A model generated the notes under the pieces. That model did no database searches. It was given only the letters and a program-made list of their open reading frames with translations, and was not told where the DNA came from. This document shows positions 1 through 34,278 of a DNA stretch of 34,278 bases, one piece after another. Both the position numbers and the translations under genes were made by a program. The stretch comes from Jimgerdemannia flammicorona (lineage: Eukaryota), in assembly GCA_003990765.1 (NCBI GenBank), contig RBNJ01000280.1, positions 1-34,278 on the forward strand, in the 5' to 3' direction. Position 1 is the stretch's first letter. Each line of letters opens with the position of its first letter.

Positions 1-408
1 ACTCTCACAGAGTCTCTTGAAGTAGCAGGGGAGGGTGGGTGAGTTCGAAGTATATCTGCCCACAGGCTTACTAGTTCCTTTGCTATCTCTTTGCTTTTGA
101 ACTATTTCGATCTGAGGTTTATTCACTCGAAGATACTGGGTTATTTATACAAGTTTGCTAGCTATGAGAGGGTGGCTAAGTAATAAATGAGTCATTTGGA
201 CTTTGTCGAAATATTTGGACAATGTCTAAATTCTATACTAAATTGGGGTATTTGATTTGGATAATGTCTAAAATTTAGACAATGTCTAAGAATTTAGATA
301 ATATCAAAATCAAGGACTGCTAACTATAATGCTATACTACTTTGGGAATAGGTGCGATCAAGTGTCTATTCCCTATTTCCTTCTTTCAAATCTGGCTGTA
401 CCGTCACA
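1..408 (-). mobile_element. LTR of an LTR retrotransposon (copy 1, truncated by window start; 5' LTR or solo LTR)
   Basis: Close match to 27600-28006, differing mostly by transitions; ends ...GTCACA at 408. On the minus strand a TATA-like GTATAAATA (~142-150) is followed by AATAAA (~118-123). There is no polypurine tract at the 408 junction. Confidence 0.85.
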
Positions 409-420
409 ATATATATATAG

Positions 421-3400
421 ATGAAATCTTGCAAGATAACTTCAACTTTTTTGATATTAGCTTTAACTCTAGCTTTGATTTCATCTCTATCATCTCTATC
501 TCTACCTCTACCTCTATCTCCATCTCTACCTCTATCTCTATTTGTATATTCATATCATCTATCTCTATATTTATCTTCAACTATGATCTATGAAATATAT
601 CTATCTTCAACTATGGTCTATAAAATAATCAATTATACAAAACTTAAGATTTCTGAACTTAAAGCAAAATACAGAGAGTTTAGCCTACTAATTGATAGTA
701 TAAAGAAAGTGCTGATTACAAGATTGTAAGAATTTCAGAATCCTTGCTAAGCTTTATTATTATCTATATTATCTACTAGATAAGCTCTATCATCTATATC
801 ATTTACTAGAAGAGACTCAAATCTACCTTATCTCTATTGAAATATCTATACTATAGACTAGTCAGAGAGACTATATTTACTCAAAGAGACCATCAGTACC
901 TCAACTGTTTCTATCTTAGTTAAAAACAAAACTTGGTTTACTTAATTAATAATACTTCTTCCAATAGCTCAGAGAATATCTTTGTTATTAATATCAATAT
1001 TATTCACATTTAATAGTTTTAAGATAAATGACTAAAATAGTATTAGTAATAATAGTAAAAGATCTAAATATAAAAAATCATATTACTATAAGAAATAATA
1101 AGTAATCAAGATAGTGATATATATAGTTAATGAAGATCAGAGTATATCTGAATATATATTAGGACCAATAGATAAAGCAGTAGATGAGCTATACTCAATT
1201 AGTATACAATATAGTAGTTATAAACTATTAATATATATGATATTATAACTATTAGTTTTTTTTCTATCTCTTTCTCAAGTATGAGATTAGAAGTATATAT
1301 CACTGACATTTTATAGAAATAGTACTATATGAGGTTCTAGACTATGCAATTACATTAGCAATCTGAGTATAGGATGAGATTGATTGATGGAATAAAGAGC
1401 TTATAAAGATAGAACAGATACTATAATATTAGCTTTATTTTGTAACTAAAAAAATCTAATCTAAACTATCATAATCTATACTCAATACTGTTAGATACTT
1501 TTTCAATTTTACCTTTAGCTTCTACATAATGATGAGTTGGTTTCTACTGACTCTTATTACTCATACTATAAGACAAAACTACTACTTTATCACAAATATT
1601 GACAAAAGAGCCATTACTGATCAAATGATAAAGAATTTATTAAGATAGATTTGAAACTCTTATACATATAATAGATATTTTGGATAATAGTTATTTATCT
1701 GAGTATATAGTAAAGAAATCTATCACATACTCCTTTCTCTGCTACCTTACTGGTCACAATGATTTGGTAGGCAATCTTCCAAGTCTACTTTCTACAATTA
1801 TTACCCCCTCTACCTCAGGTTGGTTTGCTGTATCTGTTGCAGAGCAGTAGGAGGGAGGCAATAGTAATGAGTTACCTCTTTATCAGTGTCAGATTGGTGT
1901 CTTCTTTACTTTTTCGTGGTTTCTGGTATCTTTGGCTACATCTGGAGTATATCTGTTTTGGTGCAGCACCTTCTTCCTTTTGCCATCACTAATAAGGTAC
2001 TGTCTCGGTATATCTTGGGCTACATAGGGAGTCAGCTGACCTTGGGCATCAAGTGCTCAGTGTAGATTACTTGCAGGTCCTTGGTATCTGTAGTGGGGCC
2101 CTCTGACTTTGGCAAGCTTCCTGGCAAGTGTGGTTCTGGCGTAAGTGACTGTTTTTCAGATATTGTCAGGATGGGAGGGGAGATGGCTGTCACAGATAGG
2201 AGAAAGAGCAATAATGGTAAACCAGTAGAGTGCCAGGCTGGGGACAGTCATCAGGACTGGGGTGGGTGTTGCTTTGGTGGAGCCTTTTGATTGATATAGT
2301 ATAGTTAGGTAGTAGATATCACTCTCGGCTTCTTTTGGCAGGTTGGCGAGTCAGGCTCCAGTTATCAGGAGGGGTCAGAAGACCTGAGGCTACCTATTTT
2401 AGACATCTTGGCTACACTCAAATAGAACTGGAAGCTGATATGGCAATGTGATCAAGGCCCACAGACTTAAGTAGTGGGGTATTGGGGGTCTCCTCCTGTC
2501 TTATATATAAGTCCTTTACTCACCTCAACTAGGAGAACTAGGCCCTACCCACCATGTTATGCTTTGATGAGAGTTTTTCTTTACCTGTTATTCTCTTTAG
2601 AGTAGTAGAGACTATTCTATTTGGCTCAGGCATATGTAGCCTTATACATACATTGAGTTCTTGGGTGTATACTTTCAGTCATTAGCATATGGTTGGGTTT
2701 CCCCTGGTGGTAGGGAGAGTATGATATATAGAATGAGGTATGGGCTGCTATAGGCTCTACTGTGTCTGGTATGGTCAAGCTGCTGGACAATAGCTAGCCT
2801 AGATTAATGGGGGGGCAGTGCTTGATGAGTGGTGGGGGAGGGTTTTGGCCTATATAGTCTAGGTTCCCTTCTAATAAAAATCTACAGAACATTGAGTCTA
2901 TTAAAAAAAACAAAAAACAAAACAAAAAAACAAAAAACAAAAAAACAAAGAAATCTATAAAAACCAAATAGAGATATATCTGTACTATTAATCCTAGTAC
3001 TTAGACCTTTTTAACTTGATAAATGATTTATTTAATTTTTATTTATTTATTTTATTTTATTTATTTATTAAAAAAAAAAAAAACTTTTTAGGTATTTCTC
3101 TATATAAAAACATAGTTGTTTTTGGTGAAAATAATATTCAACATATTGTCCAGCTGCTTCTTTTTCTTAATAATCTTATTTCATATATCAGCTAGGTACT
3201 GGCTCAATGATGAGATAAGTTTCATTATATACAAATACCTATATATCAGAGAATAAAGAACCTGATCGATAAGTGTTACAAGAAAGCAGCATTGTGATTT
3301 CTAATAATATTTGATATAGTTATTATTTTATGGTTCAATTTGCATTTAATGGTTGGAAAAAAAAAAAGATAAAAAAAGAAGACTCAATAGGCACATAGTG

Positions 3401-3783
3401 TACAAGATGTTGACATAGAGTCATGGTAATTATGATAATTTTTTTTTTTTTTAATTTATTATCATTTTCTTATTCTTTTTCTTTTGTAAGACTCTCTGCA
3501 ATGACAGAACACCCATGCAGTATAAACTCAGTAATTATTTTTTATTAGGGCATTTCTCAATTGATTGCTCAACAAGGCTGAGGAGCTAGGAAAGAAGGTG
3601 GTCATTATTTCTGAGGCATATACATCAAAGACATGTAGTGTATGTGGGTGGATCAATCAGGGGTTGGGCAGTCAAAAGATCTTTCAGTGCTGGGATTGTA
3701 AATGGATAGTAGATAGAGATGTAGATGGCACCCAAGGGATCTTTCTGAGAGGACTTCTGTTTCTCAAAGGGAGATCTCAATGA
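421..3783 (+). pseudogene. Degenerate Fanzor2 (IS607-TnpB-like RNA-guided endonuclease) gene with N-terminal SAP domain, two introns and a LINE insertion
   Basis: Motifs occur in the expected order and most are restorable by C>T/G>A reversal plus a few 1-nt frameshifts. SAP-like 634-726; N-terminal PY-W..SERLYL.KET..KTWF 826-939; MKIRVY(P)..Q..KQ(W)M(G)..(R)LVYN from 1130; V(P)YEVLD ~1322; (F)(RSRKDPTQ)TI at 1441; RuvC-I CTI(D)P(G)T(R)TFLT 2981-3016; FGE..IQ.IV.LL..L..LIS 3121-3183; QRIKNLID.C.KKAAL(W) 3247-3297; RRLNR..V.KMLT(W)SH 3377-3424; intact LLNKAEELG..SEAYTSKTCSVCG..C..C..DRDV.G..GIFLR 3565-3750. Putative introns at ~3019-3091 (donor eroded GT>AT, ends TTTTTAG) and 3426-3548 (GTAATT...TTATTAG). 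Confidence 0.85.
1724..2946 (+). mobile_element. 5'-truncated, degenerate LINE inserted into the Fanzor gene
   Basis: Exact 12-bp TSD AAAGAAATCTAT at 1712-1723 and 2947-2958; AATAAA ~2874 and A-rich tail 2903-2946. ORF2 C-terminal remnants (EGG motif ~1851, NWKLIW ~2426, eroded C-x2-C zinc-knuckle-like ~2546). Higher GC than the flanking Fanzor relic. Confidence 0.8.
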
Positions 3784-3789
3784 AGGTTT

Positions 3790-4080
3790 TGCTTGATGGA
3801 GCTGCCCAGGTTGCGAAACTTGGTGTACGGGGTGAATTTCACGTGCCTGACTAGTGTTGACTAGCCATGGTTAGTGATGCTCGCTTAGACCCATCCGGGT
3901 TCCGCATTTGACATTTTCGAAATTCAAAAGAGACATAGGATGTTGACCTACAATAATTGGAGGGCTTGGGAAGGCTGTATCGGAGGTTGTGTGGCGTGTA
4001 TTTGAGTCGAGCAGCACTACAGTTAGTGTTGGGGCAGAAAAGGACGTTCGGTGCGGAATGCCATAGGTCAAATCTTTCGG
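3790..4080 (+). ncRNA. Candidate Fanzor omegaRNA scaffold / element right end
   Basis: Directly downstream of the RuvC-III/Zn-finger exon and CpG-retaining. Local hairpins at ~3824-3846, 3851-3864, 3867-3894 and ~4013-4030. Crossing long-range helices 3900-3906/4052-4058 and 3937-3950/4064-4076. Ends in TCTTTCGG. Boundaries are inferred. Confidence 0.55.
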
Positions 4081-4340
4081 TTACAGCTGTGTTGAGGGGC
4101 TGAACTTTTTGGCTCCATTCCGATTATATTTTGCAGTTTTTGTGTAGGACAAGGACAGGAATGTAAATGTAGGTACGAATATTAAGCACACAATGTTTGT
4201 GGGCGTTTTTTGCAAAAGAAAGAATCCACCAGGTACCTAATTACACTGAAGCGGACTATATACAAATTAACTAGTCTTCAGCTTTTATCGAAATATTCTA
4301 CTCTCCGAACAGGAAATTATTATACGCCCCATCGCCTCCA

Positions 4341-8392: not shown

Positions 8393-11300
8393 TCATATTG
8401 TTCCTTTATCCTTCGCGATACCACTCAGCGTTTCAGTCAACCGATTCCGTGGCCTGTTGAAGAGATTCAACTCGAGGTCGCTCTCATCACTGAGCTCGTC
8501 CGCTCGGTTACTCGAGTCCGGGGTGGTACGAGTAGAATTTGGAAGGGGGAGGTCCCTCCTGGGGTTAGGTTGCGTGTCTTGAAACCGCTGAATCCATTTG
8601 TCGAGGCTCACGGCGTCTTTGACCTGGAAGTAGAATTCATGGTTGGCGACCCCCGTGACTTGGAAGATATAGTCGTCGTGATTGTTCGTTGTGATCGCCT
8701 TGCATGACATGAATGGATACGATACCGCCTTGTGGGTTTCGCGCTACGGTGATTAAAGCAACGGTTGTGAGCCATCGGTGAACATGACGTAACGAATTGT
8801 TTGGCTGTTTGCGATTTATGCTGCTAGCCTTGGGAATGGGTACAGCACAAGGACGGATTGGTAGAACACTTACATCAATTAACATGAAGTAGCCCATCTT
8901 GGTAATAACTACTAGCCTCTTTGTCTCCCACCGTGAGAAGTAGGGCATATTTTTCTTCTGGATCCTGACGGGTAGCACTCCTTCATGGGCATCGAGAACC
9001 ATGTCAACTCCGTCGAACTTGGGCATGATGGCGCTCAAGGCGATCTTGCTCGTATCCCACGTGGCATGCGTCGGACGCGTCGCACGCGTCGCCGTCGAAC
9101 GAGTATGCTTCTTCAGCTTATGGTGTTTAATGATGGCAATCATCTTTGGTACGAATAGTGCAATCAGGGCGAAAACTGCGGCAAAAAGTAGAGCGCTGAT
9201 GCAAAGGTAATACGACGCCAGGAATTCGGTGCTCGGGAGGAATAGTGTCGGGATGCAGATGATGCCAGCGATCATCATGTTGCTAATGGTACATAACAGG
9301 GTAAAATCGTGTTCAATTTCGGTTCACTGTGGCATATTGAACGTTCACGTATACGAGCAACTTACTAGCTGACAAACGCGATCTGCTTTGATTCTCCGTA
9401 CATATCATCCACTCCACGAGTCTGTGCATTGGAGTCGCAAGTGTGCAGGTTTTAGCCACAGCATTCGACCTTCAACCTCGGCGGTTAAGTGTAAATATAA
9501 ATGAATTACCTTGTAAGCCAAAATTGATGCGACAAGCACCAGCGATCCCAAATAAATAATTAAAAAGATCTCAAAAAGGGACGTTCCCGTACGACCCACA
9601 GTGTAGTATCTTGAATTACAAGTCCAAGCCGATGACAAAGTATTAACCGCGGTTAGCATCGGCACCGGCGGATCCAGGATTAACCACAACCCGACTATAA
9701 CTAAAGCTCCCGCCAGCAATGCGATAACGATGGTCGAAAGATATCGATTGGTGATGGTATTCGACTTCAAGGCGAACGAGTTGTCGAAGATGCGGTATAT
9801 CCTAAAAGTTTTGGCAATAATGTTGCCCAATACTAGGACAAACGACACGGCCAAACAAATGGGTCGCAGCGAGCAGATCGCCACGGTCGGAATCAAGGTG
9901 AACGACGCGATGGATCCGAACGCGAACATGAGACCCAGCAGTTCAAAACAGCAGAAAAGTGGGCTATGCAAGGTCAATCGTGTCTCAGTTAGATGGATGC
10001 CGTGTGCAATTCGAGTGCTGACGCCCATGCCACCTTTTCCAGGAACTCACCTTGAAGCTTTGACGACAGCGGCCTTTCGGTATAGAATGATAATCAACAT
10101 CACGACGAGACAACATAGAGCTCCAAAAGCACAGATTGCCAAGATGATGACAATGCCAAGGTTTATGAGAAGCGGGTTCACAACTGTAACAATATGAACA
10201 TGTAGTGGATTGCTGAGAACGGAAGCTCCGTACAAGAACAAATAACAACTGGCAGATATTTTGGTAGTGAAGATACACACTTGCAGGATTGGCACAATCC
10301 TTTGGAGTCTGTGAATAGTGGAGATGCCGGTTAGTGGAGATGCCGGTTGGACGTGATATGAGATCAAGAGACTTGATGCGGATAGTGGCGAAATTGGTTT
10401 ACATTGGAGGTTCCGTCATGAAAGTACGGTGGTAATACGAGGTTGAATGAACCGTCATAATTGGTAGCAAATCTAACTGCGGTGCCGTTCTTGACATAAA
10501 GATATTCGAAATTCCTGTACAATCCAAAAAAGACGCCAGTCAGTGCCAGTGAATCTCATTTTGAGAGAAAAACTTTCCTTCGCACTGCATCATAAACTTG
10601 ATAATAGCAATAGACACACACGCCGCAGAGAGGTCACCTAAGGAGTAATTTGGCGACAATTTGATGAGTGATGCATCTCTCATGATTCAAATTGTGGGTA
10701 TTCGATCAGATTATGAAGGTGCTTACCAGTCGCAGTAAAATTCATTAGCCCTACATACAAGGATGAAAAATAAAAGTTAGCAAAGGAGTATATTTATTCA
10801 AGTTGTTTTTAACCCGATACAAGTTTGTTTACCCACCTGCTGGACCGGTCCAATTCGTATTGAAAAGCAGAGGCGTCAACGGGCCTGCGTTCTGGTTGAA
10901 AAGCCCTTTGCTTAAATCATGAAGGCCAGCTTGTCGCCCTCCAGGGTAGTTATTAAGTATCTTTTACACAAAGTTAAATACAAAAGGGTTGGTGAGGAAC
11001 GTGCGTTACTTTCGAACTATACATTGCAGACCGCATTTCTTTCTTTCCAGGGTATTTGCTTACTTGGTTTATTCCCAATGCAAGGACGTACATGCATGAA
11101 TAGGCTATGAAAAATTGCAGTGTATAAACCAAGTTATTTCTCTTTGCCATACAAAAATGCGGTTCATATTAACAAATACAATAAAACAATAAATACCTTG
11201 TGGCTGATTATGTGGCAAAAAGTTGGGTGCCTGGCCATAGAATCTATCAATTTAATATTGGAATATAATCTTTGTCAACAGATATTTGTTGATCATATAT

Positions 11301-11675: not shown

Positions 11676-11739
<64 letters not shown>

Positions 11740-13141: not shown

Positions 13142-15948
13142 GTTACGACGGGGACGATACGATGCGATAAAGAAAACTCTTCAGAGTCAAGAGAGGCGTT
13201 GTTTTCGGGTTCTTTGAATCTGCGGATGGGCTGGTCTTGAAAAAGAGTCGATCGTTGTCACAACTCTGAACGGGTATAACCACTACCAGTATTTGTTCGA
13301 ATGGCTGCGTCTGGCGGCTTGTGTGACACAATTACATTTTGGCAGCGTAGAAAAACCGGTGATACAAGATTGTTTTCTTTGGCCTTGTGCCTTTGTTAAT
13401 TCTTCATCAGTACTAAACTAAGCGAAGATCTCCATTTAACCCTGACGTCATTATTGGTCTTGTGCCTTATTCAAAAGACGTTTTGTTAAGAATCCGCGAT
13501 TTAATGTTCATCTATGTTTTGTACGCGTTATAAACACTAGCCGTCAAACGTTTTTGGATTCATCGTGGTTGGTCCAAATATATTATCCACGATGCATAAT
13601 TTCTTCCACGCGATTCCATGAGGGGGTATTTGATACCGAGAATGGACATAATGGACATTCTCGAAGGAGTGTGCATGTGGACGACTACTGCATCTTCCAT
13701 CGATACCTGAGCCAGACTGTCGACGATGTTCAAGATAGAGAGCGTCCGTATAGCCAAGATTCAAACAGGTTTGTTAGACAATGATCGAGAAACATTCTTG
13801 GTTCATTAGAAACGTGTGTTCGAAAAACCCCATGTGAGATTGGCCACCATACCAGCTCCTTTCTTGTCCCCTTGCAGGGTTCGGATTAAGAGGATAGTTA
13901 GGGTACAAAAGATTTGATATCTGGGGCCTTGATGTGACAGGACAAAGGAAAGCCCTCGGAGATCCATTCGTTTAGTGTATGTTTCATGTCACACGCTCAC
14001 GTAATCTGCCAAACCGACAAAGGGGTGTCCGATGCCTATGTTGACATGCCCCACACATATCGGCTGGTCCCGTCGGGCCGTTGATCCGTCCCGTTATGGG
14101 TCCGACCGCCTGTTAAATTGAAACCCTTGGGTACCACAATATAATGCGAATATACGAATTGAAGATCCGTAGGGGGGGGGGGGATTTTACAGCCCTTGCC
14201 GATGGACCACGAGGATAGTTTCATTCGTACGAAAACTCTACTCAAGCTGTTCGTCACTGTGGTGGACACATTCTGAAAATGTAACTTATTCTTCTGGACA
14301 AGCATGTTATCCAGTTCTATCAGAATAGAATTTTGTCTCGACAAATTGGGGGAACAATACCGAAGTCAATCATATAGAGAACAATTGTTCATGGTGATTT
14401 TTGGTTTATGCTTTTTTGAATAAACAGCCAGCTCATGTAAGTCCATTGTCAGCTGAACCAGGCTCGAAACAGGATATCGTTTGACAAAAGTTTATGAAGT
14501 GGTTTGCCAAAGGCCTCTTTGTTGGTCCATGCTACTCCAAGTTTCTCCTTATGTGGAAATTTCACAGAGGATTCGCGATACTTTGGTATGTGTACACGGC
14601 AGCATAAAGATGAACACTCGAAAAAAGCACCTCGTCCATCAATGTGAGCAAATAGGCATTGGCCTTCAGCCAACTCATTAAAGTCCAACGAGGTCTAGAT
14701 ACTTTCCGCCCCTCGCCCCCCGCCCCTTTTTTTGAGGGTGGGAAGGGGGGAAGGATATTGTTGTATTCGTTGATTCTGTACACATTATTGCAGCGATCCA
14801 TGTAATTGGGGTTCAGAAACTGTTAATTATATTCCAGACGGCACGAACAATACCACTTCGCACGGAGGGATTCTGACGGACGAACGAGAATAACGTCGCA
14901 CGTCACATTCGCCGAGGGATCGGACAGGTTCCAAGGGCGACATTTACAGTTCATCCCATCGTCTCGCGTTTTCCCTCGATTTCGTAGCACCAGTTGGGCA
15001 GGACCCCGCTCCTAGGGGCGGAGGGCATCTCCTCTCGGCATTCTACTCCTTGGATCACCATATTCCCTCGGCCTCCCGCCATATGCAAGGACCGCAATTG
15101 TACAAAAGAAACCCCCAACCACCACTCACTCGCTCTGGGATTTCCCGAACCTCGGCCAGTCCCAAAAGCGCCTTTTTTTCGCGTGGCTCTCTATGTCGAT
15201 CACTAGGGGGAGGGGGCGGGAACTCTCACGTGCGAAATATATTAGCGGGTGGGTCCTGTGTGTGTCACGTGAGCAACATCCTTATCTCCTCGAAAGTGTG
15301 ATTTAAACCGTTTAAAATACTAGGTGACATTTTTTTTTTTTTTTTTTTTTTGTCGAAACGGCTGCGGCGCGCGCTCGTGTCCTACGGGCGGTGAGAATTG
15401 CCTAATAAGAGCATAGGACGTGGGATGATGTAAGAGGGTTATAGAGCAGCCCAGACCGCATACACACGCAATAGGCGATAGATGATGCCCGAGGCGTAAT
15501 AGGCAGATCGGATTACGAGAGACGTTGATAAATGGCGGCAGGCCAAACGTAGAAATGGGGGTGATTTTAGTAATGGGCAAGGGCCCATTTCTTACTTAGA
15601 GTTGGATTAAGCCCAGTTGATTCGTGATGCGGGTTTGTTTATATTTGGCTCTACCGTTTTATTTTTGCGAGATGAGATCTGTGCTTTTGTTGATTGCAAG
15701 GGTTTGTTTGTCGCCATGATCTGAGCTTAGCCTCGCGCCTCATCAGGAAGGCCCATGTCGTAATCGAGCATTGGGAAAAATCGTCCTTTATCTTTGAAAT
15801 GTATTTTCAAATCATTTTTCGGTTGCGTTTTGTCTAGTCCTCTTCTGCAAGCGCTTGTTGTTTGGTTATATTTAGTTGCGCTATTATAATTCGTAGAAAT
15901 CGCTTTCCCTCTTTGATACTTGTCTCATTGTCAAATGTAATTATATAC

Positions 15949-15953
<5 letters not shown>

Positions 15954-16026
<73 letters not shown>

Positions 16027-16040
16027 GTCACTTGGACTCA
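15954..16040 (-). mobile_element. Extremely 5'-truncated LINE insertion (about 17 nt of 3' end plus poly(A))
   Basis: Perfect TSD TAATTATATACACTTT at 15938-15953 and 16041-16056. The insert on the minus strand reads TGAGTCCAAGTGACTAT-(A)n, matching the terminus of the LINE at the window end (AGTCCAAGAGACTAT-(A)n) at 14/15 nt. Confidence 0.85.
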
Positions 16041-16874
16041 TAATTATATACACTTTCTTCAAATCGCTCTTTGGGATGTGGCTGGTCCTGGTAATTCCCA
16101 AAGGAGATTTTGTCTTCCCTACCTGTTGATAATAAATACAATGTATATTTTGTTTGAGCAAGTTTCGGCATTAATAAGATGGGCAACTTGCAGAAAATAC
16201 AATAGGGCATGAATTAGTTTACGACGCCACGCACTATTTGTTATTTGTTATTTTATTTTATTAATAAAAACTACTTGCCATGTCGAAAATCTCCACTGCC
16301 TCCTAACCCTCAATCTTTCTCCCCAGAACGCCACTGCGATGACCGTCCCTCGGGGTCCTAAACAAGGCACCAGGACCGCGGCCATGTGCGAATCGGTCCT
16401 AGTGCTGTCCTAAACCGGGAGCCGGACAAGGCCTTGAGCATGGTCCAGGAGATACTCGGTATGCGCGCCCACTTAAGCGCGTGATACCACCGTTGGCGAG
16501 GACTCGCTCCATTTCTGACGTGGAAGGTGAGGTGGATGACTCACGGCGGGATCGATGGTTGCTTTTTACATAATTATGTCGTTTGGCTGTGTGCAATTGC
16601 GCCTTGTTTCCGGACACGTGACCAGCAATAATCAATGTTAACCTCGATGGTGCTAATGCGCAGTGTAAAACTATAGAATAAATTTACGTTGAGGGGGAAA
16701 CGGGAGGAAGGGTGACGTCGAGGGGAGTGGGCCCCCCGCTCTTCGGATTCGAGTACGACCAAAGTTCGTAGGTGGTGTTCCGTTTCTGGCGCAGTGTGCC
16801 CAGGAGAATGTAGTCTGCATACATATTTTGATATTACATAGTGGGCAAATATACACGCACGCCGACAGCACCGT

Positions 16875-22622: not shown

Positions 22623-23339
22623 GGCTGGTGCGAATAGGGGGTTGTTGGAAAATCAAAAGAGATGTGGGAATGAATGGTGGCATACGGTCAGAGTTTATCA
22701 GTGACTGCTCGGGGATTATAAAATTGGGGAACGCGACTGGGGTGGTCAAGGATCAGGACCAAAAACCATCCCTCATCACGTGTCACTTGAGCTCTTCCCT
22801 TTTTCTTTTCATCAACCTCAGTAACCTCAATTGTCATCAATGTATAGTACACGCAATCGCGAGAATTGAGTGCACCCAGTATGCACTTTTTTCTTTTTTT
22901 TACATGCTCTGCAACTCTACTCTCCGACATGGACAGCTGTCAAATTCAAATTGATGAATTTCACCCCCACCTTTCGCCGCGGATGCTATCCGCGGCAACA
23001 ATCGGGGATCCGCGGCAACAACGGGAACAACCTCGGATTGGGAACCGGCCCGCGGTGCTCGATGGCCCCCTACGTAAAACTCTCCGTCCCATCCAATCTA
23101 ACATCGCATGTAGCACAACAAGATGCGATGCCGACGGTTGGTCGAAGAGGGACGTGCACCAATAAAAAAATCAGATCGTCCACCACGATAAGCGCAAAAG
23201 AAATTCACTCTACGAGGCGAATCACGTGGGCTAAGCCATAAAATCATGAATCTGAAGTAGCGGCGCAGTAAAACATAACTACGTGCGGCAAGCTGCTGCT
23301 ATCTGTTAGGCCGCAACCGTCGCAGTACCAAGTGTAAAA

Positions 23340-23900
23340 TATCCTTCTGATATCCTTCTTTGATCTATTATATGGGGCACCATCAATCAAAACATATATT
23401 CTGGAAAAATAAATTTAATTACATATATAATATCTGATAGCTTTTACTTTGCTATAAAGTTTCTATTTATTTAAATTACTTAATCTTATAATATTATATC
23501 AGAAGAGATTGTCTAGTAGATTTATATTTAGCAGATAAAATGGTTTCGTTTAAATTATATTATGTTAGACTCTAATTTGTTTAAATTTATAATATTAAAT
23601 ATAAATATATTATAATATAATAACAAAATTATAAATATTCTAAATTAAACAATTTAATTTATAGATTAGTTTTATTAATATATTTAATATTAATAGTTTT
23701 TATTTTATTTATTTATAAGTTCAAGTTAAAAATTTAAAAAAAGAAAGCTAACTAATACTAAGTTTATCTAAATTTTTCTGTTTAAATTATTTTTATATTA
23801 GAGTATGAGCAGGATTATTATTATTATTTAAAAAAAGTTTATTGAGTAATAAAAATTTATCAAAGAATCTTTTTACATTCTCATTTTTCTTCTTCTTATT
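23340..23900. other. Very AT-rich island, probable eroded transposon relic
   Basis: Abrupt switch to AT-rich, CpG-poor sequence between GC-balanced intergenic segments; no motif recovered. Confidence 0.4.
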
Positions 23901-24458
23901 ACATTCTATTTCTTCAAAGGTTATTTTTGCTGCGATCGTAGGTTGTTTATGCTACATGAGAAATTGGGTGCACTCTGCTTCGAAACAGCGTTTGAATACC
24001 TATATATACAGAATTTCCAAGTTTACATCCTGATGAGAGGCTCTCCGCATGGTGTTGATCGGACATGGCCATTTTTATTTGGAAATGAAGGGTTGTCAAT
24101 TCATGTAAGTCTACGATTCTCAACGGAACTCTTTGTATGCCGCCAAATGATTTTGTGCTACTCCGTTTTGGTTTTGGTGGTCAACACTCGAGTAACAGGG
24201 ATATCCATGAGCTCAAAACAAAAAAAAAAACAGAGTTTCACAATGCCCCTGGGGTGAAGGTGGAATACTATTAGGTAGTGTTACCTTCTGTATAGAACGT
24301 CGGGAACGGTTTTTCTCCTGAATGTGAGGAGTTGTCGAACCATGTTTCGTTTCACGTCACGGTACTTGAGAGGTACCAAGACATGAAATGTTATGTTGAT
24401 GGATATATAGTTGCTAATTTCCCAATACCTCACCTCATTCGCTGCTTCCACTGAATCG

Positions 24459-25346: not shown

Positions 25347-26366
25347 CATGCCCACCGGGGTTTTCCCCACCCCTCCCCCATTTTTTTTGGATTTTATATT
25401 TGCGACACAATGGAAGTCGCATAGCGAAACTCCCAAAAGCTCGACAATAAACCTGTTTCGATTTAATAAAAATCCATACATGAAGGCCTTAAACACATGT
25501 TGTATCCGAATCTATAAACTCTAGAGCTACAGGCAATCATTCTGATTTTGCACATGGTTTCCTTATAGTAGGATCTAGTCCCAAGCATTTGCTTAGTATG
25601 TATGCCAATGTACAAGATAAACCAAGTAATAAAATATTCAAGATCTTTTATCAAGTGTAGATTTTATTATCTCTCTACACAGTCAATATGTTTATTATTA
25701 AAGAAGAGTAGAAGCAGAACAGTGTTTCTTATCAGAATATTGTAAAATTGCAGACTTATCTCATAAAGTCTCATATATATTAGATAATTGAGAAGTGATA
25801 TGGTTATTTTAAATATATTTTTATTATTGGTTTTATTGTAAAAAATTTTATATTAAATTTAAGATAAATTATAAAAATTAGCCAATTATAGCTCTTTATT
25901 TAATATAGATTTAAAATATAATTTTTAGAAAAAAAAAAAATCCAATTATAATATAGTAAATGCTTAACTTGAAAAATATATTAAATTTCTTTATTTTGAA
26001 TTTTTAATCTTAACTTCTCAAAGTTAGTTACAAAGTAAGTTTGAAAGATATATATATCTACTTGTAAACTACTTAGTTTTTTTCTTTGAACTATTTTAAT
26101 TTAAGATTTATTTACTTATAATTCTGAGTTATTTATATAAGTTTACTAACTATAATATTTTCTATATTATATTTAAGAATTAGATTTAGATATTACAATC
26201 AAATATTTATTTTCTAATTTATTTTTAATTTAAATTATATATTATAACTTCTTTAAAATATTGATTTAAACTTTTAAGTTTTTATATTATTCAATTTATT
26301 TAATTATACTTTTTAATAATATATATATATTTCTATATTTAAATAAAGTTTTTTAAAACCACTTCT

Positions 26367-27011
26367 TTATTTTTATTTTTATTTTTATTTTTTTAATAAT
26401 CTCATAGACTTCTTTATTATCAAACTTATCTATCTCTAATATAATATAATAATTCTTTTTCTAATCAATCTTTCTCTGGAGACTACTCTTTACTTCTTTA
26501 TAATTAAAGACTATCTGACGGTTAACCATTATACATAACTCTCTCTCTACTTTACTTATAAATCTCCTCTATGAGATATTGGAAACAATTTTTCTAGAGA
26601 CTCTATTTTATCTATTAGTCAGACAAAACCTCTCTCAATAATTCTTCTCACCTTACCAAATACTCCTCCAAACTTATCTATCTTCTCTTCTTAAATACAT
26701 ATAATCAGTATCTAGCTAGTCCCACCTATATCACTAAGATCTACTTAACTATAAGCTACTTATTATTAATATAACTCATCAATCTCTCTCTCAAATCATT
26801 CTATCTATCTTTCTCATCATTCTCTCTCCTCATTACTCTTAAATACTTCTTAACTGCTACTCAGAGGTCTCTAAAAATCTTATACTCATCTAGCCAATAT
26901 TCAGATATCTATGAAGCCTCTCTCTTACTCTATATTATAATACTTCTTACAATTAAAGCACTCACCATCTATTAAGTAATCTGACTGAAAGTTTAATGTA
27001 ATATTTCTCTA
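26367..27011 (-). mobile_element. Heavily G>A-eroded, 5'-truncated copy of a LINE related to the element at the window end
   Basis: The reverse complement aligns by eye with ~33632-34260 (e.g. RNITLNFQSDYLIDG..FNCKKYY vs RNVMLNFYSGYLVEGGQFDCEEYY; the AATAAA-tail region). T-rich tail 26367-26394; TSD TAAAAC[C/T]ACTTCT at 26354-26366 and 27012-27024. Confidence 0.8.
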
Positions 27012-27530
27012 TAAAACTACTTCTCTAAGATATATATAATATAGATTATTTGTTATATTTAAATAGTTTATAAACTTATTTTACAATTATAATTTAAATA
27101 TAAAAGATCTGATAAGTAATAATTTAATCTTTTTCTATTATATTTAATATATTATTTAAGTTTGAAGTATTTCAAAAATTTGATCTAATATTAGTATATT
27201 AAAATGAGAAATTTATAATAAGTATATTTATAATATTTTAAATACTATTGAAGAATTTCTCTATAATTTTTTTTTTTAACTTAGTAATATTTTATTATCT
27301 TTCTATAACTTATTAGATAGTACTTGTAATCTTAAAGACTATATATATATATACTATTTGATATAATATTTTTAAATAAGTTTTAGTAAATAATAGTAGT
27401 AATAATTATATCTGAGAGTTTTTATAACTAAAAGATAGTCTTTTTTATATTTTATATAAGATAAGATTTTTTTTACTTAAGCTTTAGTTTTTATAATTAT
27501 ATATAAAGCTTCCACTATATTTTAATATAC

Positions 27531-28006
27531 TGTAACATAGTGGATGCTTACTCTTGAAAGTACGTTGGATTTCTATATCTTGAAAACTTGACTGTTCTGA
27601 CTCTCGCAGAGTCTCTTGAAGTTGCAGGGGAGGGTGGGTGAGTTCAAAGTGTATCTGTCTACAGGCTTACTAGTTCCTTTGCTATCTCTTTGCTTTGAAC
27701 TATTTTGATCTGAGGTTTATTCACTCGAAGATACTGGGTTATTTATACAAGTTTGCTAGCTATGAGAGGGTGGCTAAGTAATAAATGAGTCATTTGGACT
27801 TTGTCGAAACATTTAGACAATGTCTAAATGTTATACTAAATCGGGGTATCTGATTTGGATAATGTCTAAAATTTAGACAATATCTAAGAATTTAGACAAT
27901 GTTGAAATCGAGGACTGCTAACTATAATGCTATACTACTTTGGAAATGGGTGCGATCAAGTGTCTATTCTCTATTTCCTTCTTCCAAATCTGGCTGTACT
28001 GTCACA
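27531..28006 (-). mobile_element. Complete 476-bp LTR (copy 2; 3' LTR of a minus-strand element)
   Basis: Termini TGTAACA...TGTCACA (TG...CA with a short inverted repeat). Minus-strand purine tract AGGAGGAAG(T) abuts the LTR at 28007-28016. Repeat of 1-408. Confidence 0.88.
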
Positions 28007-28397
28007 ACTTCCTCCTGAATGGATGGTCTCATCCCTAAGGCATCTATTCAAACTCTCAGGCTTCAACAGTCTGTATGGTCTTGTACTGTGCAATTTGCTG
28101 CATGACTGTTTCCCAATGATGTCTTCTCACTTTCTCGAAGTCAGTGGGAGTTACTCCTCTCAGGTGGTCTATTGCTGTTTCATCTTCTCGGAAATAACTT
28201 GTGGATCCTTTTGGCAATAGTGATCTGTGAGTAGGAGAGTTGACACGTGGCAATCCAGTCCTCCTTGGTCTTTGCTGGATCCTGATTGAGCACCTGTCCA
28301 AGCTTGAAGTACTCTTGGAATTCTGCCCGATATTGATAGGCTCTAAAGTGTAAGATCTGAGAGAGATGAGTCTGCACCACCTCTCTCCACTACAATT
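28007..28397 (-). mobile_element. 3' internal region of the LTR element with a frameshifted ORF remnant of unknown type
   Basis: Lies between the PPT/LTR and the LINE 5' end. Minus-strand frames ...AEFQEYFKLGQVLNQD...ITIAKRIHKLF / EDETAIDHLRGVTPTDFEKVRRHHWETVMQQI. Confidence 0.5.
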
Positions 28398-28458
28398 CAC
28401 ATTACACACACTTTTCAACATACTTTTGAAGCATTTATTGGAGAAAGATACTAAGGCA

Positions 28459-30492
28459 ATGTCAACCAGCAAGCAAGCTGACATGTATACTAGGTCGGGT
28501 GGACCTGGAGCCTTCGACTGGCAGACTGTTGGGAGAGGATATGGATTGGGAATGGGGTCTTTCGGTGGCTCGAGTGGGCAGGGCAGCTCGGGTAGTAGAG
28601 GTGGCACTGGTGGGGGGGCTGGAGAGAAGTAGGGGAGGAGCTTTGCGGACATGCTGAAGGGTGGGGGCTGGCCGATGGGCACTCATGGTGGACCGGCGGG
28701 AGGGAAGGGGAAGCAGAAGGATGGAACCGCTGGGGGAGCTGGACCTTCGCTGGGGAGAGGTGGGGGAAGTGGAGGGACGGCTGGGGGTAGTAGTGGGACT
28801 GCTGATGGTGGTGTGACGGTGAATCTGGAAAAAAAAAGAGATGTGACGATTGATGGCCAGAGGGGGCAGGGGCTCCCAATGCGGAAGGGGGACCTGGCTG
28901 ATGGTGTAACGGGACTGGCGGTGGCCCCGTTGCTCAAGAAGTCAATCTCGGAGTTCGCGGCTACCTTGTGCTTCCGAGGCTTGGCAGTGATGATGAGGAT
29001 GGTCCTGGGGCTTATCTCGAAGCAGGTGGCTGGTGCGGCCTCGATAAAGTTCTTGAAGAGCATGGAGGGGGTTGAGGTGGGCTTTGAGGAGGCAGGCCTA
29101 CTGGACGAGGCCATGAAGACAGGAGTGGTGGTTGGGGAGGTAGTAGTCCCCATGGTTAGGTGCTTGAGGTGGGACCCCAGGGTCATGCAGCTTCTGGTGA
29201 GGGGGGTGCCCACAGTGACTAAGGAGGAGACTAGGAGGAGGGTGGAGGAGGTGATGGTTGAGTATGGTGACGTGGTGGACATTGGATTTCAATTGTGGGA
29301 GGGGATGACTATCAGGATGGGTGACATCGATGTTAGGATTCGGTTGGCAGAGAAAGAGGCCACAGGGAAGCCGAGTGACTGGCCCTCAGTGCTGATGTGG
29401 GGGGCTGTCATCTGCAAGGTGTCGAGGGTGAAGGGGAGTGAAGAGGAGGAGGAGGACTTGTTGGAGGTGCTGGAGGAGTTGGGTGGTGCTGTAGAGAGGA
29501 GGGCAAAGGCCTGGAAACTGTTTGAGGAATCGACACATCTGGAGGTTGTGGGCGGGAGGCGTATCCGTATGGATAAGAAGCAGTGGGAGTGGATCCAGGG
29601 ACGCAAGAGACAGAAGGAGCTGTTGGCGGATATGACAGGTAGGGGGAAGAAGCAGTCAGGTGAAGCTGAGGAGTCTGGGGGTGCTGAGGCCAGTGTCTGG
29701 GCTAGTAAAGGAGGAGAGGAGGTAGAAGCGAAGGAGGCAGGGGCTGGGAAGGGGCTGGTCAAGGACCCATTTGCTGATGGTACCTTTGAAGTGTGGGAGC
29801 CGGAGTTGGATGCCACCCCCCCCCCACTTATCAGGAGGGGCCCAGTGGGGATGTGAGGGAGGCAGGAGGATACACGGATGCAGGGGGCCCAGCAGGTGTG
29901 CTTTGGGGTCCCTAATGTGGCTCAAGGGGGTCAAGTGGTGGCAGTTGGTGAGGATGAGCTGGTGGATGTCCCTGAGGAGGAGTGGGATGAGGCTGCTAGT
30001 GTAGGAGCTGATACTACGATGTTGGATGCAGGGCAGCTGGGGACTCCAGGAGGGAAAGAGGTGGGGAACTTGTTGTGAGTATGCAAGGTGATGGATAACC
30101 TTGCAGCAGAAGCATTGGGGAAGGTAGATCTGCGGGCGATGCCTGAGGAGTATTGGGCAAGGATCCTGTATGGGGATGGAATGGTGGAGGCGCTGAAGGT
30201 GGAGATTCTGGTGATTTTGCTGGAGGAGGAGGGATATGAGGTGGATGAGGTGAGGAAGGCAGACCTGGGGGTGGTCGCTGCTGAGTGGGCAGCCTACTGT
30301 TGGGCAGAGCGTCGGGGTCTACAGCTCTGGCAGGAGACATGTCTGGAGTATCGCGAGGATTTTGAGGAGCGTGAGGATGGGGCAATGGTCGAACTTCTGG
30401 GGGAGTTGGAGGCACGGGAAGCTGGGGAGAGGGAACTGGCTGCTGAACTTAACTTGGACCTGGTGCAGGAGAGGCAGGATGCCGACTTATAG
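28459..30492 (+). pseudogene. LINE ORF1 (gag-like), disrupted
   Basis: ATG 28459, Gly-rich N-terminus, SFADMLK, RRM-like VRGVP...EYGDVVDI. In-frame stop at 28630-28632, frameshift at the C-run ~29816-29826, stop at 30076-30078. Confidence 0.7.
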
Positions 30493-30524
30493 AGGGTGGG
30501 CTTTGCTATATATCATTATTCTTT

Positions 30525-33500
30525 ATGAACAGTACAACCAACATTTTTTCCTTGAATGTGAATGGGCTAAGGGGATCTGGGTGGCGTCGGAACATTTTTA
30601 CTTGGCTCAAGGGATTGGAGGCTGATCTCTTTTTATTACAGGATGTTCGATGTGAGGATGAGGACAATCGGACAGAGTGGACTAAGGAGTGGGGGGGGGC
30701 TGCTGCATGGTTTGGAAAGGTAGCCATTCTGGTGAGAAAAGGCAGAGGAGACTTGGGGGGAATCAGGAGCTGGGGTGATCACTTGGTCTGGGGAGATTGG
30801 CATCGGCCGGGTTGGGAATCGGTGAAGGTGGGCTCTTACTACTGCCCTGCGGCTAGGGGTGAGCAGATTGCTTGGATTAGGGGATTGCTGGAGGAGGGTA
30901 CTCTCTTGGAGGAAGGGGTAGATGTTCTTAGTGGAACTTTAATATGGTTCGGGATCAGCATCTGGACAGAACTGATGGAGGGAGGAGTGCCGGGGGTAGG
31001 AGTGGAGGTCTGGATGCGTGGGAGGAGGTGGAGATGTTGAGCTCCTTGGGGGATATGGGCAGAACGAGGTGGGGTGATGCCAGGGTCTACATGCATTGGG
31101 TGAATGGCCTGGGCACAAGAATCGACTGGATTCTGATGGCAGAGTGCTGGGGTTCGGATGTTTGGAAGGCGTTGGAAGTGGAGTGGTGCCCATGGTCTGA
31201 TCACTGGGGACTATTGGGGCAGGGGCAGTTTGGGGGGAGTGGAGATGGACCCGGACATTGGTGCCTTAACTCCTCCCTGCTGGCTGAGAAGGGGCTGTGA
31301 GAACTTTGGGTGAAGGACATTCAGGCAAAAGTTTGTACTTGGAAGCATGAGGGTTTGCCTGTGGCTGTCTGTTGGATGTGATTGAAAGAGGCTGCAAGGG
31401 TTTATTGGGGAGAGGCCGGTAGGGAGGCTGGGAGGCTGAGAAGGAGGCGCATGAGGTGTGCTTCCAGCAGGCTGAGAAGACTACAAGTGGATTGGGCGGA
31501 CTTGCTCACTGTTGTGGAGGTGGAGGATTGGAGGATAGAGAGGGCGAAATTGGATGTAGTGGAACTACAACAGGTGCTGAGGGAAGAGGAGGAGATACAT
31601 ATGTGGGGCATGGCTGCTAGGCTGCGGTGGCAGGGGCTTGAGGAGGGTGAGCAGCCTACTAAGTACTTATCGAGACTTCTCAAAGCTAGGCAGGTGCGCC
31701 ATCGGTGGGATGGGGTCCTGGATGCTGATGGGGACATGGTTCATGGTACGCAACAAATCCTGGGGGTCTTGAAGGAGAGATGGCAGGGTTTGTGGAGTGA
31801 GGGAGAAGGGGGTGCAGATGGGGCAGAGATTGCGGATTCACTAGAGGAGTGGGAACCACCGCAGGTTGATGGACTGGGAGACTTGATCTTACCAGTCCAG
31901 GGAGAGGAGATCCAGGGTGTCCTGGCAGCAACTAAGCTTGGGACGGTGCCAGGAGAGGATGGATTGCCGTGGGACTTCTGGAAGAAGATGGTGAATGTCC
32001 CCGGAGTGTTGGGCAAGATGGCTGGTCTTTGTGACCATGTCCTTCAGAGTGGTACGTGGGTTGGTGAGCAGGATTTGGGACTGGTGGCCCTACTGTACAA
32101 AGATAAGGGAAGAAGGGAAGACTGGAAGAACTGGAGGCCGATTATGCTACTGGATATAGACAGGAAGATGGTGACTAAGGTGATTGTCACGAGGCTGCAG
32201 AAGGTTGCCCAACAGGTGCTGGGAGAAGAGCAGAGGGGCTTTGTTAGGGGTAGGCTAATCCGAGATGGAACTGCATGGGTTCATGGAGTCATTGAGGGGG
32301 CCCAGGTCTGTGGGCTGGATGGAAGGTTGGTCTTTCTGGACCAGGAGAAGGCCTATGACCGTATATGGCGGGTGTGGCTGGGAAAGGTGTTGGACTGCAT
32401 TGGTGTTCCCCCAACATTTAGGGCCTCTATGTTGAGTCTGCTGGAAAGTAGTTGGGCAGCTCTGACATGTAATGGTTATCGCAGGAGGGCTTTTTCTTTG
32501 GGAAGGGGAGTGCCTCAGGGGGACCCTCTGTCCCCGATTCTCTATGCCCTTTCACTGGAACCATTGTTGGATAGGATTTGCTGGAAGATAGTGGGGCTCT
32601 CTATATTTGGTATAGTGTGGAAGGTGGGGGCCTTTGCTGATGATATGGTGGTTGGACTTGGGTCTGTGGCGGATGTAGAGGCACTTCTGGGGACTGTGGA
32701 ATGGTATGAGGCCCATTCGGGGGCAAAACTCAACTGGTATAAGTGTGAGACAATGGTGCTAGGGAATGGGTTAGTGGGTGGGGACGTCATTGGAACAATT
32801 GTCCCTACTGGTGAGGTGGTGCGGTATCTGGGCATCTTCCTCTCTGTATATGGTTCTGTCTTACTACGAGTGTGGTGGGAGGGCAGGGTGAACAGTTGGG
32901 GGGAGGCCCTTCGAGGATGGGGAGGCCGCCATATCTCTCTAGCAGGGCAGGTGTCAATCCTGAATGTATATTGGTTCCCGAAGCTGTGGTATGTGGCATA
33001 TTACCTAGACTTCCTAGCATGGGTGGTGAAGAAGCTAATGAAGGTGGCTAGGGACTGGATTTGGGCAGGGAGGAGGTCCCAGGTCAGTTGGGATACTCTG
33101 GTGAGACCGGTAGTCAGGGGAGGTCTGGGCCTGGTGGATTTCCCTAAGAGGCTGTACTGCTTGAGGGCCTGGTGGTTGAGGAGAGCTGTGGAATTGCAGG
33201 GCGGGGGTTGGGTACCTCTGCTGCAGAAGATATGGGAGATGCGAACCTCCCCTCGATGGTCCTCCAGGGATCTGCTCTCTTTGGTGGGGCTGAATGGAGT
33301 TTGGCGACTGTGGTTCAAGGGGTTTTGGTGGGGAGTGGCTGAGGGAGCACACCAAATTGGCCTGCGCTGGCAGGGTAATGAGGGGGAGGTGGCATGGGGG
33401 CCTAATATGTGGCGTTGGGATAGTCTGCTCCTGGGGGGTACTCCCCTAGCTGCATTCGATATTGAGGAGGGGGTGGAGTGTCAGCAGGGGCTTGGCCGGG

Positions 33501-34183
33501 ACCTTTGGCCGAGTAGCTGGCAGATAGTTGGAATTGGAGAAGAGTGGAACTGGGCAGGCATCTGGTCTTGGAGTGCTGAGGTCCAGAGGTGGCTCCCTCC
33601 CAAGTACTGGGTGGTATAGTGGAGAATGTTACAGAGGAATGTCATGCTGAATTTCTACTCAGGGTATCTAGTTGAGGGTGGACAATTTGACTGCGAGGAG
33701 TATTATGATGTTGGGCAAGCTGGGGATTATGTACAGATGCCAGAACATTGGCTGGGGGAGTGTGAGGTCTTAAGGGAATTTTGGGTGGAGATAGGGAATA
33801 GATTGGGTATTGGGTGTAGGCAGGTGGGGGAGGGGGGTTGCTGGGAGGACTTCAAATCTCGGCTTGTGGGTGGGGTTGGGGACAGTTGGCTCACTGTGGG
33901 ATGGGTGTTAGCAGTATGGGTGGGACTGGCAGGACATTGACTTTTCATATTTGAGAAGGGGCAGTAGTTGGGGTTACGTGAGAAAGTGTTAAGGTGGGAA
34001 GAGCTGGTGGGGGATCTGCTGACCAGATGGTGGGTGGGTTGGGAACCTCAGAAGGGCAGACATCAAGGTTTAGTGATGAAGATATGTGAGCAGAGTGGTG
34101 GGAGGATGAGGATTGTGTTCAACAAAGTAGTCTTTCACAGAGAAGGAATAGGGGGGAGAGGCCCCCCTAGGGGGATTGGATAG
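30525..34183 (+). pseudogene. LINE ORF2: APE endonuclease + reverse transcriptase, disrupted
   Basis: Endonuclease motifs SLNVNGLR, LLQD, G.FN (frameshifted ~30935), RIDWI, SDH. RT motifs PGEDG, WRPIMLL, QRGF..GRLI, LDQEKAYD, GVPQGDPLSPILY, FADD, RYLG, GGLGL. Stops at 31298, 31379, 33617, 33938 and 33965. Confidence 0.93.
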
Positions 34184-34278
34184 GGGGTGGGATCATTATA
34201 ATTATATAGAATAGATTGGTAATAAAGGGCAGTCCAAGAGACTATAAAAAAAAAAAAAAAAAAAAAAGGAAAAAAAAA

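Follow-up and report, generated by a model that had tools for sequence, protein, structure and literature searches.

Positions ~831-3897 on the forward strand of contig RBNJ01000280.1, within the 34,278-nt stretch analysed here (the window), most likely represent the decayed remains of a single eukaryotic DNA transposon of the IS607 family, which encoded a serine recombinase (TnpA) and a Fanzor2, an RNA-guided nuclease. We put the probability of this reading at about 0.9. The original prediction, made from the letters of the sequence, had proposed a hidden, full-length TnpB-like gene in this AT-rich region. The proposal held, since the segments aligned collinearly with both the DNA and the protein of a metagenomic relative, L002, once positions 1724-2946 were removed. 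The element is a dead member of an already catalogued family, with near relatives in the 2023 Fanzor census. The present analysis adds a remnant of TnpA, an exact right end with an adjoining RNA block, differences in introns among copies, and a hypermutation limited to one tract. The related loci, 80 from a metagenome scan, are designated by L-numbers (L002, L036 and so on), and relative proteins are given P-numbers.

The GC fraction was 0.24 at 831-1723 and 0.22 at 2959-3485, compared with 0.58 in a neighbouring gene. The sole sizeable open reading frame (ORF) of the relic, 72 aa at 3565-3783, matched Pfam family PF07282 (Cas12f1-like TNB, the TnpB-type zinc ribbon) with an E value of 3.1e-15. 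A database search with this ORF returned 14 relatives with identities of up to 78%, P0001 and P0002 being 77-78% identical. Most of the relatives were fragments, which would be expected of gene callers that break off at introns. In tblastn, P0001 covered window positions 3121-3777 (E 4e-54). The conceptual 423-aa Fanzor protein of L002 aligned in three stretches: aa 9-116 at 1130-1453 with 12 stops, aa 112-187 at 1438-1665 with 6 stops, and aa 239-411 at 3121-3771 with 14 stops, 7 of them within 3426-3548. The stretch between the protein-aligned parts was covered by DNA alignments to L002 and L036 across the retroposon described below and the first intron. Plain blastn against L002 gave three collinear blocks, pairing window 1303-1719 with L002 1650-2063, 2960-3426 with 2078-2524, and 3565-3897 with 2541-2876 (E 5e-62). 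The window was also collinear at the DNA level with L003, L023 and L036.

The first two of these blocks lie 1240 nt apart in the window and 14 nt apart in L002, and 1724-2946 was therefore taken as an insertion, as had been predicted. The inserted sequence is a non-LTR-type (LTR, long terminal repeat) retroposon of 1223 nt on the forward strand. It has an A-rich tail and is flanked by a perfect 12-bp target duplication, AAAGAAATCTAT, at 1712-1723 and 2947-2958. The insertion was absent at this point from L002, L003, L023 and L036.

Without the retroposon, the parts of the nuclease gene followed one another on the forward strand in the expected order. The N-terminal half, equivalent to the helix-turn-helix (HTH), WED and REC parts of Fanzor2, was located at 1130-1723 by tblastn with L002. 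It contained many stops and a frameshift near 1440-1450, and its read-through translation (P0015) matched the intact protein P0016 with 38% identity (E 3e-18). An exon piece at 2959-3018, defined by alignment to L002 and L036, carried the RuvC-I motif at 2990-3010. Here the ancestral D-P-G-V-R-T-F has become N-P-S-T-*-T-F, which is explained by transitions of the G>A and C>T types, including GAT>AAT at the Asp codon. The relatives carry DPGVRTF, and D213, P214 and G215 were invariant in a 35-sequence alignment. The next exon piece, at 3092-3425, held the RuvC-II region and was frameshifted at a T-run near 3118 and at an A-run at 3358-3382. At the RuvC-II place the window reads FDIVIILWFN and the relatives FDVIIIPRFN, so that the canonical Glu position has changed from Pro to Leu. 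The last exon, at 3549-3796, was barely mutated, with one stop (TGA 3562-3564) and a frameshift near 3765, and contained PF07282. The alternative catalytic Glu was found in this exon as GAG 3613-3615 within SEAYTSKTC, opposite the Glu of NEYLTTKTC in ApmFz2. It was followed by the CxxC..CxxC zinc ribbon at 3634-3699 (Cys codons at 3634, 3643, 3688 and 3697) and by the RuvC-III DRD at 3712-3720.

All motif coordinates of the original prediction agreed with the sequence. Its suggestion that the canonical RuvC-II position was probably Pro ancestrally, with Glu in SEAYTSKTC, was confirmed by the IIIPRFN of the relatives and the alignment to ApmFz2. The end of the gene, placed at 3783, had to be corrected. 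After a 1-nt shift the frame continues with the tail ..DLNEGFA* to a true stop at TGA 3794-3796, like that of the relatives, and the element itself extends to 3897. That the copy is dead, as had been claimed, was evident from 25 stops in the exon-equivalent sequence (32 over the three protein-aligned stretches, including the 7 inside 3426-3548), from the frameshifts, from the Asp to Asn change in RuvC-I, from a mutated intron donor and from the 1.2-kb retroposon within the gene.

The original prediction had reported no remnant of a serine recombinase, which turned out to be wrong. Because most differences between the window and its relatives were transitions, the window and the loci were recoded to purine/pyrimidine (R/Y) and blastn was repeated. 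In this transition-masked comparison, for which unrelated matches set a noise ceiling of ~100-120 bits, window 831-882 matched L002 1029-1080 (94% over 52 nt) and 843-1199 matched L002 1116-1487 (82% over 378 columns, 306 bits), the whole of 831-1199 falling on the recombinase exon region of L002. The remaining matches to L002 covered 1202-1720 at 92%, 2928-3426 at 88% and 3553-3898 at 90%. The IS607-type TnpA remnant at 831-1195 (+) consisted of ~40 nt from the end of exon 1 and the complete exon 2, contiguous in the window without the 55-nt intron of L002. Its frame reads ..SLLKYLYYRLVRETIFTQRD.. in the window against ..SLLERSRRGLVKE|IVLTQRD.. in L002; towards its 3' end, the remnant shares sequence with the N-terminal extension of Fanzor, which is read in a different frame. 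The remnant was visible only after transition masking; a protein-level search of the window for TnpA gave nothing significant, with a joined query in which exon 2 was off by one base. A pyrimidine tract at 443-602 also matched L003 222-377 (78%), weakly and collinearly, and was not counted owing to its low complexity.

The arrangement of the living element can be seen in L002, which appeared intact. A gene with MerR and Resolvase domains (Pfam) lies directly upstream of the Fanzor gene, and its segments matched positions 2-66 and 67-143 of the Resolvase profile, continuing across the 55-nt GT..AG intron. The Fanzor protein consists of an N-terminal basic stretch, HTH, WED/REC, a split RuvC with DPG, the zinc ribbon and RD. 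A serine recombinase was found directly upstream of Fanzor in L003 and L023 as well, and a TnpA-like match lay upstream of the nuclease in 51 of 84 loci, a count that rests on exon 1 of the query since exon 2 was misjoined by one base. In L002 the TnpA frame and the Fanzor N-terminal extension overlap for ~90 nt in different frames (1394-1485), the overlap beginning with the Fanzor ATG and ending with the TnpA stop. The 5' portion of the Fanzor frame, KKPERKKSHRRKKRR, resembles a nuclear localization signal (NLS) and lies wholly within TnpA exon 2.

At the right end, a conserved non-coding block followed the stop codon at 3797-3897 (+). About 100 nt past the stop were conserved as strongly as the coding sequence, and conservation ceased abruptly at CCATCCG (3891-3897). 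The 3' block ended with this heptamer in the window and in all but one of 17 loci, including distant subfamilies. L001, L004 and L005 were 99.5-99.9% identical over their shared DNA and each diverged past CCATCCG, as did L002 and the window. Since independent copies diverge beyond it, CCATCCG was assigned as the right end of the element. In RNAalifold, GAUGG at the stop codon paired with CCAUC at the end, a pairing invariant in 11 of 11 sequences. For the four closest sequences an extended inner hairpin was predicted in addition, supported by 4 compensatory pairs. With all 11 sequences the terminal helix alone was found, the MAFFT alignment losing the register of the inner hairpins of the subfamilies. 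The block is likely to be the end of an omega-RNA (right-end element RNA, reRNA) scaffold that abuts the right end of the element, in keeping with published accounts of TnpB and Fanzor2. By analogy with the biology of TnpB and Fanzor2, the element would be moved by TnpA and would have neither inverted repeats nor target duplications. The 3' end of the transcript would be processed to omega-RNA, with the DNA just past the right end serving as guide. Fanzor2 with this omega-RNA would then cut matching DNA, which would favour retention and spread of the element.

The three near-identical loci L001, L004 and L005 are internally deleted derivatives, in which the C-terminal half of Fanzor follows directly on the end of TnpA exon 1. 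They occupy different insertion sites. A segment of ~155 nt is replaced between L001 and L004, and in L005 another right end, in inverted orientation, lies 150 nt downstream.

The copies of the family differed in their introns. Removal of a 59-nt and a 62-nt GT..AG intron from L002 gave the open 423-aa Fanzor frame, and removal of the 55-nt intron gave an open TnpA frame. Removal of GT..AG introns thus restored an open frame in 3 of 3 cases in L002, and also in 2 of 2 in L036. The two introns of L036 measure 92 and 77 nt; one lies 16 nt downstream of the position that we call b and one between RRT and VRKML. L006 was intron-free throughout its Fanzor ORF, and L001 in its last 243 aa. Among copies with 60-94% protein identity, six positions were recorded, one of them in TnpA and the others in Fanzor (a, b, b', c and d, where b' lies 16 nt from b). 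When 7 introns were aligned locally in pairs, |z| stayed below 2 relative to shuffled sequences in every case, providing no sign of a common mobile intron. The family appears to carry spliceosomal introns whose predicted positions vary between copies.

Intron b of the window, 73 nt at 3019-3091 (+), lies in phase 2 within a Trp codon (TG|G). Its donor is mutated from G to A (ATAAAT..), and its acceptor AG is intact. The same codon holds GT..AG introns in L002 (2139-2200, 62 nt), L003, L022 and L023, and this shared position supports the intron as originally proposed. A script over the 80 loci flagged the same four at this point, L003 with 73 nt of extra DNA, and L016-L019 showed the same break. 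The TnpA intron and intron a of L002, the latter also carried by L003, are both missing from the window, which at both places is collinear with spliced L002; 1130-1723 accordingly runs without interruption. The spliced nature of the family, claimed in the original prediction, stood as far as members such as L002 and L036 are concerned. Its further claim, that such a family exists in the source lineage, draws on the metagenomic relatives and on partial contigs.

The second intron that had been proposed, the private block of 123 nt at 3426-3548 (+), was retained as a candidate (d). We consider it a probable intron, judging from its sequence features. The block begins with GTAATT and ends with TTATTAG, and its length and AT-richness resemble those of the family introns (GC 0.04-0.25), although its sequence is not similar to theirs. 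Exact GT..AG excision recreates the CATGG|G of L036, the missing base falling in the next (Arg) codon, and intron positions demonstrably vary between copies of the family. Alternatively, the block may be a later insertion or filler acquired around or after the death of the copy, the living gene then having had a single intron at 3019-3091. This alternative is somewhat doubtful in our judgement, and several observations speak for it. Extra DNA at this codon was found in 0 of 80 related loci, and in L036, the nearest relative with an intron nearby, that intron lies 9 codons upstream. The frame lacks one base when 3425 is joined to 3549, and removal of 122 nt (3428-3549) also restores collinearity. 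Finally, the boundary of hypermutation falls within the block.

This boundary separates two parts of the element with very different histories of substitution. With L002 as a stand-in for the ancestor, we counted 123 C>T and 97 G>A changes against 26 T>C and 27 A>G in 831-1723, and 44 C>T and 45 G>A against 9 T>C and 13 A>G in 2947-3430. In 3545-3905 the corresponding numbers were 11, 17, 13 and 17. The substitutions were thus strongly one-directional in the first two segments and symmetric in the last. Upstream, the fractions of C sites changed were 0.68 in CpG, 0.59 in CpA, 0.40 in CpC and 0.38 in CpT, compared with 0.14-0.25 downstream. The switch from hypermutated to unmutated sequence occurred near 3485, inside the private block and within ~60 nt, with the 5' 2.6 kb being hit. 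The TpA/ApT ratio reached 1.13 in the mutated tract, against 0.5-0.66 in genes and intact copies. The damage upstream of ~3485 is a C>T/G>A hypermutation that resembles repeat-induced point mutation (RIP) and that spared the last exon as well as the 3' RNA block. The retroposon was unaffected (GC 0.44) and therefore arrived after the hypermutation. Further AT-rich islands (GC 0.22-0.31) were observed at ~23000-24000 and 26000-28000, between GC-rich genes.

The AT-richness of 831-3485 might also be ascribed to ordinary decay with age, for example by deamination of 5-methylcytosine or AT bias. CpG was indeed the most affected context (0.68-0.71). The observed/expected ratio of CpG was 0.09 in the retroposon (1724-2946) and 0.29 in the last Fanzor exon (3549-3900), compared with ~1.1 in host genes. 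Such depletion in otherwise unmutated repeats is a sign that repeats of this genome may be methylated at CpG, and decay by methylation would then act on repeats. The host may, moreover, not be an ascomycete, and a kingdom-wide screen published in 2025 (PMC12543289) reports an enrichment of RIP-like signatures in ascomycetes only. Nevertheless, we regard generic decay as improbable. It agrees poorly with the data, since the two halves are parts of a single insertion and of the same age, and yet they differ in the fraction of C sites changed (0.38-0.68 versus 0.14-0.25) across a switch of ~60 nt. The heavy involvement of non-CpG contexts (CpA 0.59) and the raised TpA/ApT ratio argue in the same direction.

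The hypermutation of this tract resembles the RIP of ascomycetes in its two-strand C>T/G>A changes within a bounded tract, its stop-filled AT-rich block, the rise of TpA/ApT and the preference for CpA. It differs in that CpG was hit at least as hard as CpA and in that the window contains no visible duplicated partner of the tract. A further difference is the host, for which the available lead points to zygomycete-grade fungi. The genes of the window (Kelch, 7tm_3, Aa_trans, TIM and the reverse transcriptase of a long interspersed nuclear element, LINE) indicate a eukaryotic host. The nearest Atlas clusters of the Kelch protein belong to Zoopagomycota and Mucoromycota, which is taken as a lead only, and the taxa matched by the Aa_trans ORF were uninformative. 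If the host is an early-diverging fungus, tract-limited hypermutation would extend a RIP-like defence beyond ascomycetes, to a lineage in which such defence is not expected. An ORF fragment at 9405-10028 on the reverse strand matched the domain of class C G protein-coupled receptors (GPCRs), 7tm_3, with E 1e-23. Among fungi, class C GPCRs occur mainly in early-diverging lineages, and this gives a weak hint to the host.

A broader picture would combine the two processes: a prokaryote-derived IS607/Fanzor2 family in the midst of gaining or shuffling introns, with the 123-nt block as a recent private gain, and a RIP-type inactivation outside ascomycetes that spared the omega-RNA module. As a whole this picture is speculative and rather unlikely. 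If it were true, the spared module could still supply guide RNA in trans to intact copies.

The assignment of the nuclease to Fanzor2 of the IS607 type was supported on every point that could be compared, at the level of sequence and of a predicted fold. Among PDB sequences searched with phmmer, the best match was 9b0l (mimivirus L79, ApmFz2) both for P0008 (E 2.9e-27, with ISDra2 TnpB at 2.5e-6) and for P0014 (E 8e-28, with ISDra2 TnpB at 3.7e-9). Cas12f came far behind 9b0l in these searches, and SpuFz1 was absent from the match lists. L006 has an uninterrupted full-length Fanzor ORF of ~409 aa (P0016), for which an AlphaFold model was built from the 35-sequence alignment (predicted local distance difference test score, pLDDT, 83.8; predicted template modelling score, pTM, 0.77). 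Foldseek placed 9b0l first for this model (E 9e-21, template modelling (TM) score 0.67) and ISDra2 TnpB (8h1j) second (TM 0.71/0.79). The SpuFz structures appeared at ranks 37-47 with TM ~0.33, 8gkh being at rank 39 with 0.34. The HTH family PF12323 (HTH_OrfB_IS605) was detected in exon 1 of L002 (E 1.5e-8) and in P0014 (E 1.6e-12), and the protein is compact, intact genes encoding ~410-425 aa. The original prediction had pointed to IS607-derived Fanzor2 from the set of motifs. The kind of nuclease that it named was borne out by the PDB and fold matches, the HTH and the linkage to TnpA. The rearranged active site, which it called typical of Fanzors and related TnpBs, cannot decide between Fanzor1 and Fanzor2, because both have it; published work describes this RuvC site for Fanzor1, Fanzor2 and the 'pro-Fanzor' TnpBs alike.

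Several observations weigh against the reading of the element as an IS607/Fanzor2 transposon. The search for its left end was negative, with nothing significant upstream of 831: when window 1-900 was aligned locally with L002 1-1115 in a transition-tolerant way, the score was 137, compared with 142 +- 15 for shuffled sequences. The N-terminal read-through of the window matched 0 Pfam families. The middle exon of L002 (exon 2) had 0 matches among PDB sequences and matched P0014 in the DPG region only; what links the N-terminal half to Fanzor2 is thus the fold of P0016 and not sequence. The intron calls in the family are predicted ones. As to the 3' block, the Rfam search of the window at gathering thresholds gave 0 matches, the single-sequence fold of 3700-3897 was no better than shuffles (z -1.6), and the terminal helix gives no covariation because it is invariant, so that the putative scaffold is proposed from conservation. 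The presence of the family in the source lineage seems plausible from metagenomic relatives and from one sequencing run (X1, its kind guessed) that contains 0.16 of the sampled words. The partial contigs of this run extend over 3585-3885, some of the retroposon and the flanking sequence at 3938-4326, but not the AT-rich part, and they provide no usable joints at the introns. In addition, the closest entries of the 2023 census, Fanzor50_0638 and Fanzor50_3031, are labelled 'unclassified' and not Fanzor2 family 5 in data S1 of PMC10530073, which gives no organism names.

The shared active site, the census label and the initial reporting of Fanzor1 alone from zygomycete fungi (Table 1 of PMC3627910) might suggest that the relic belongs to Fanzor1 or to TnpB-like genes outside IS607. 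This is highly improbable given the lead of ApmFz2 over SpuFz1 in both the phmmer lists and the fold search, the PF12323 HTH, the compact size and the serine recombinase directly upstream in L002, L003, L023 and many other loci, with its remnant in the window. A literature search combining Fanzor with zygomycete taxon names returned no paper on both among the top-ranked matches.

Traces of retroposition were also observed elsewhere in the window. At 15938-16057, a T75 homopolymer followed by 18 nt is flanked by a 12-nt direct repeat, AATTATATACAC, and has the appearance of a minus-strand poly-A retroposition with an extreme 5' truncation. There is also a run of A56 at 11678-11733. The T75 and A56 runs fit the 12-bp duplication of the retroposon at 1724-2946 and an active LINE machinery. 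A 745-aa ORF at 31382-33619 contains a reverse transcriptase domain, RVT_1 (E 9e-26), within a 6-kb tract, 28000-34278, whose GC skew is unusually strong (+0.37 to +0.48); this tract is probably a non-LTR retrotransposon. The insertion at 1724-2946 shares only its A-rich tail with this element.

Fanzor2, its IS607 context, the rearranged active site and the gain of introns by Fanzors have all been published. A single dead copy of a family with near relatives already in the census matters little in itself. It serves as a pointer to intact, compact Fanzor2 genes of ~410-425 aa with TnpA and a sharp right end (L002, L006), which might be possible small eukaryote-adapted editors. The presence or absence of introns among close copies also offers a tractable case of intron turnover within a mobile element.

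The element can be compared with three known systems. Fanzor1, represented by SpuFz1 (8gkh), is likewise a eukaryotic descendant of TnpB, for which the same rearranged catalytic site and intron gain have been described. However, the relic's family had no sequence match to SpuFz1 and a poor fold match (TM 0.34), and Fanzor1 proteins are larger (600-800 aa) and carried by eukaryotic transposon superfamilies rather than IS607. Prokaryotic TnpBs of the IS607 and ISDra2 types share with the family their size, domain order, fold (the 8h1j match given above), the TnpA-TnpB gene order and the RNA scaffold at the 3' end against the right end. The pro-Fanzor TnpBs, in published descriptions, have the same DPG and alternative-Glu signature, whereas ISDra2 TnpB keeps the canonical Glu. 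The relic's family differs from prokaryotic TnpBs in its predicted introns and in the basic, NLS-like N-terminus, and the relic itself lies between eukaryotic genes (Kelch, 7tm_3, Aa_trans, LINE) with a poly-A retroposon inserted in it.

The closest known system is ApmFz2 of the mimivirus (L79, 9b0l), the best match of the relic's family in both sequence and fold. Both have a DPG RuvC-I, and in both the canonical position of RuvC-II is occupied by a residue that is not acidic (Pro in the relic's family, Gly in ApmFz2). An alternative Glu precedes T-S/T-K-T-C in both, with the zinc ribbon and RD farther on. They also share the N-terminal HTH, an upstream IS607 TnpA and a conserved 3' non-coding block. 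The two differ in that the relic's host is a cellular eukaryote and not a virus, and identity over the fold alignment was ~21%. The relic's family lacks the long structured N-terminal extension (~410-425 versus 520 aa). Several of its copies have predicted spliceosomal introns in both genes, whereas ApmFNuc is stated to be intron-free. The conserved 3' block is ~100 nt in the family, compared with the ~200 nt given for ApmFNuc.

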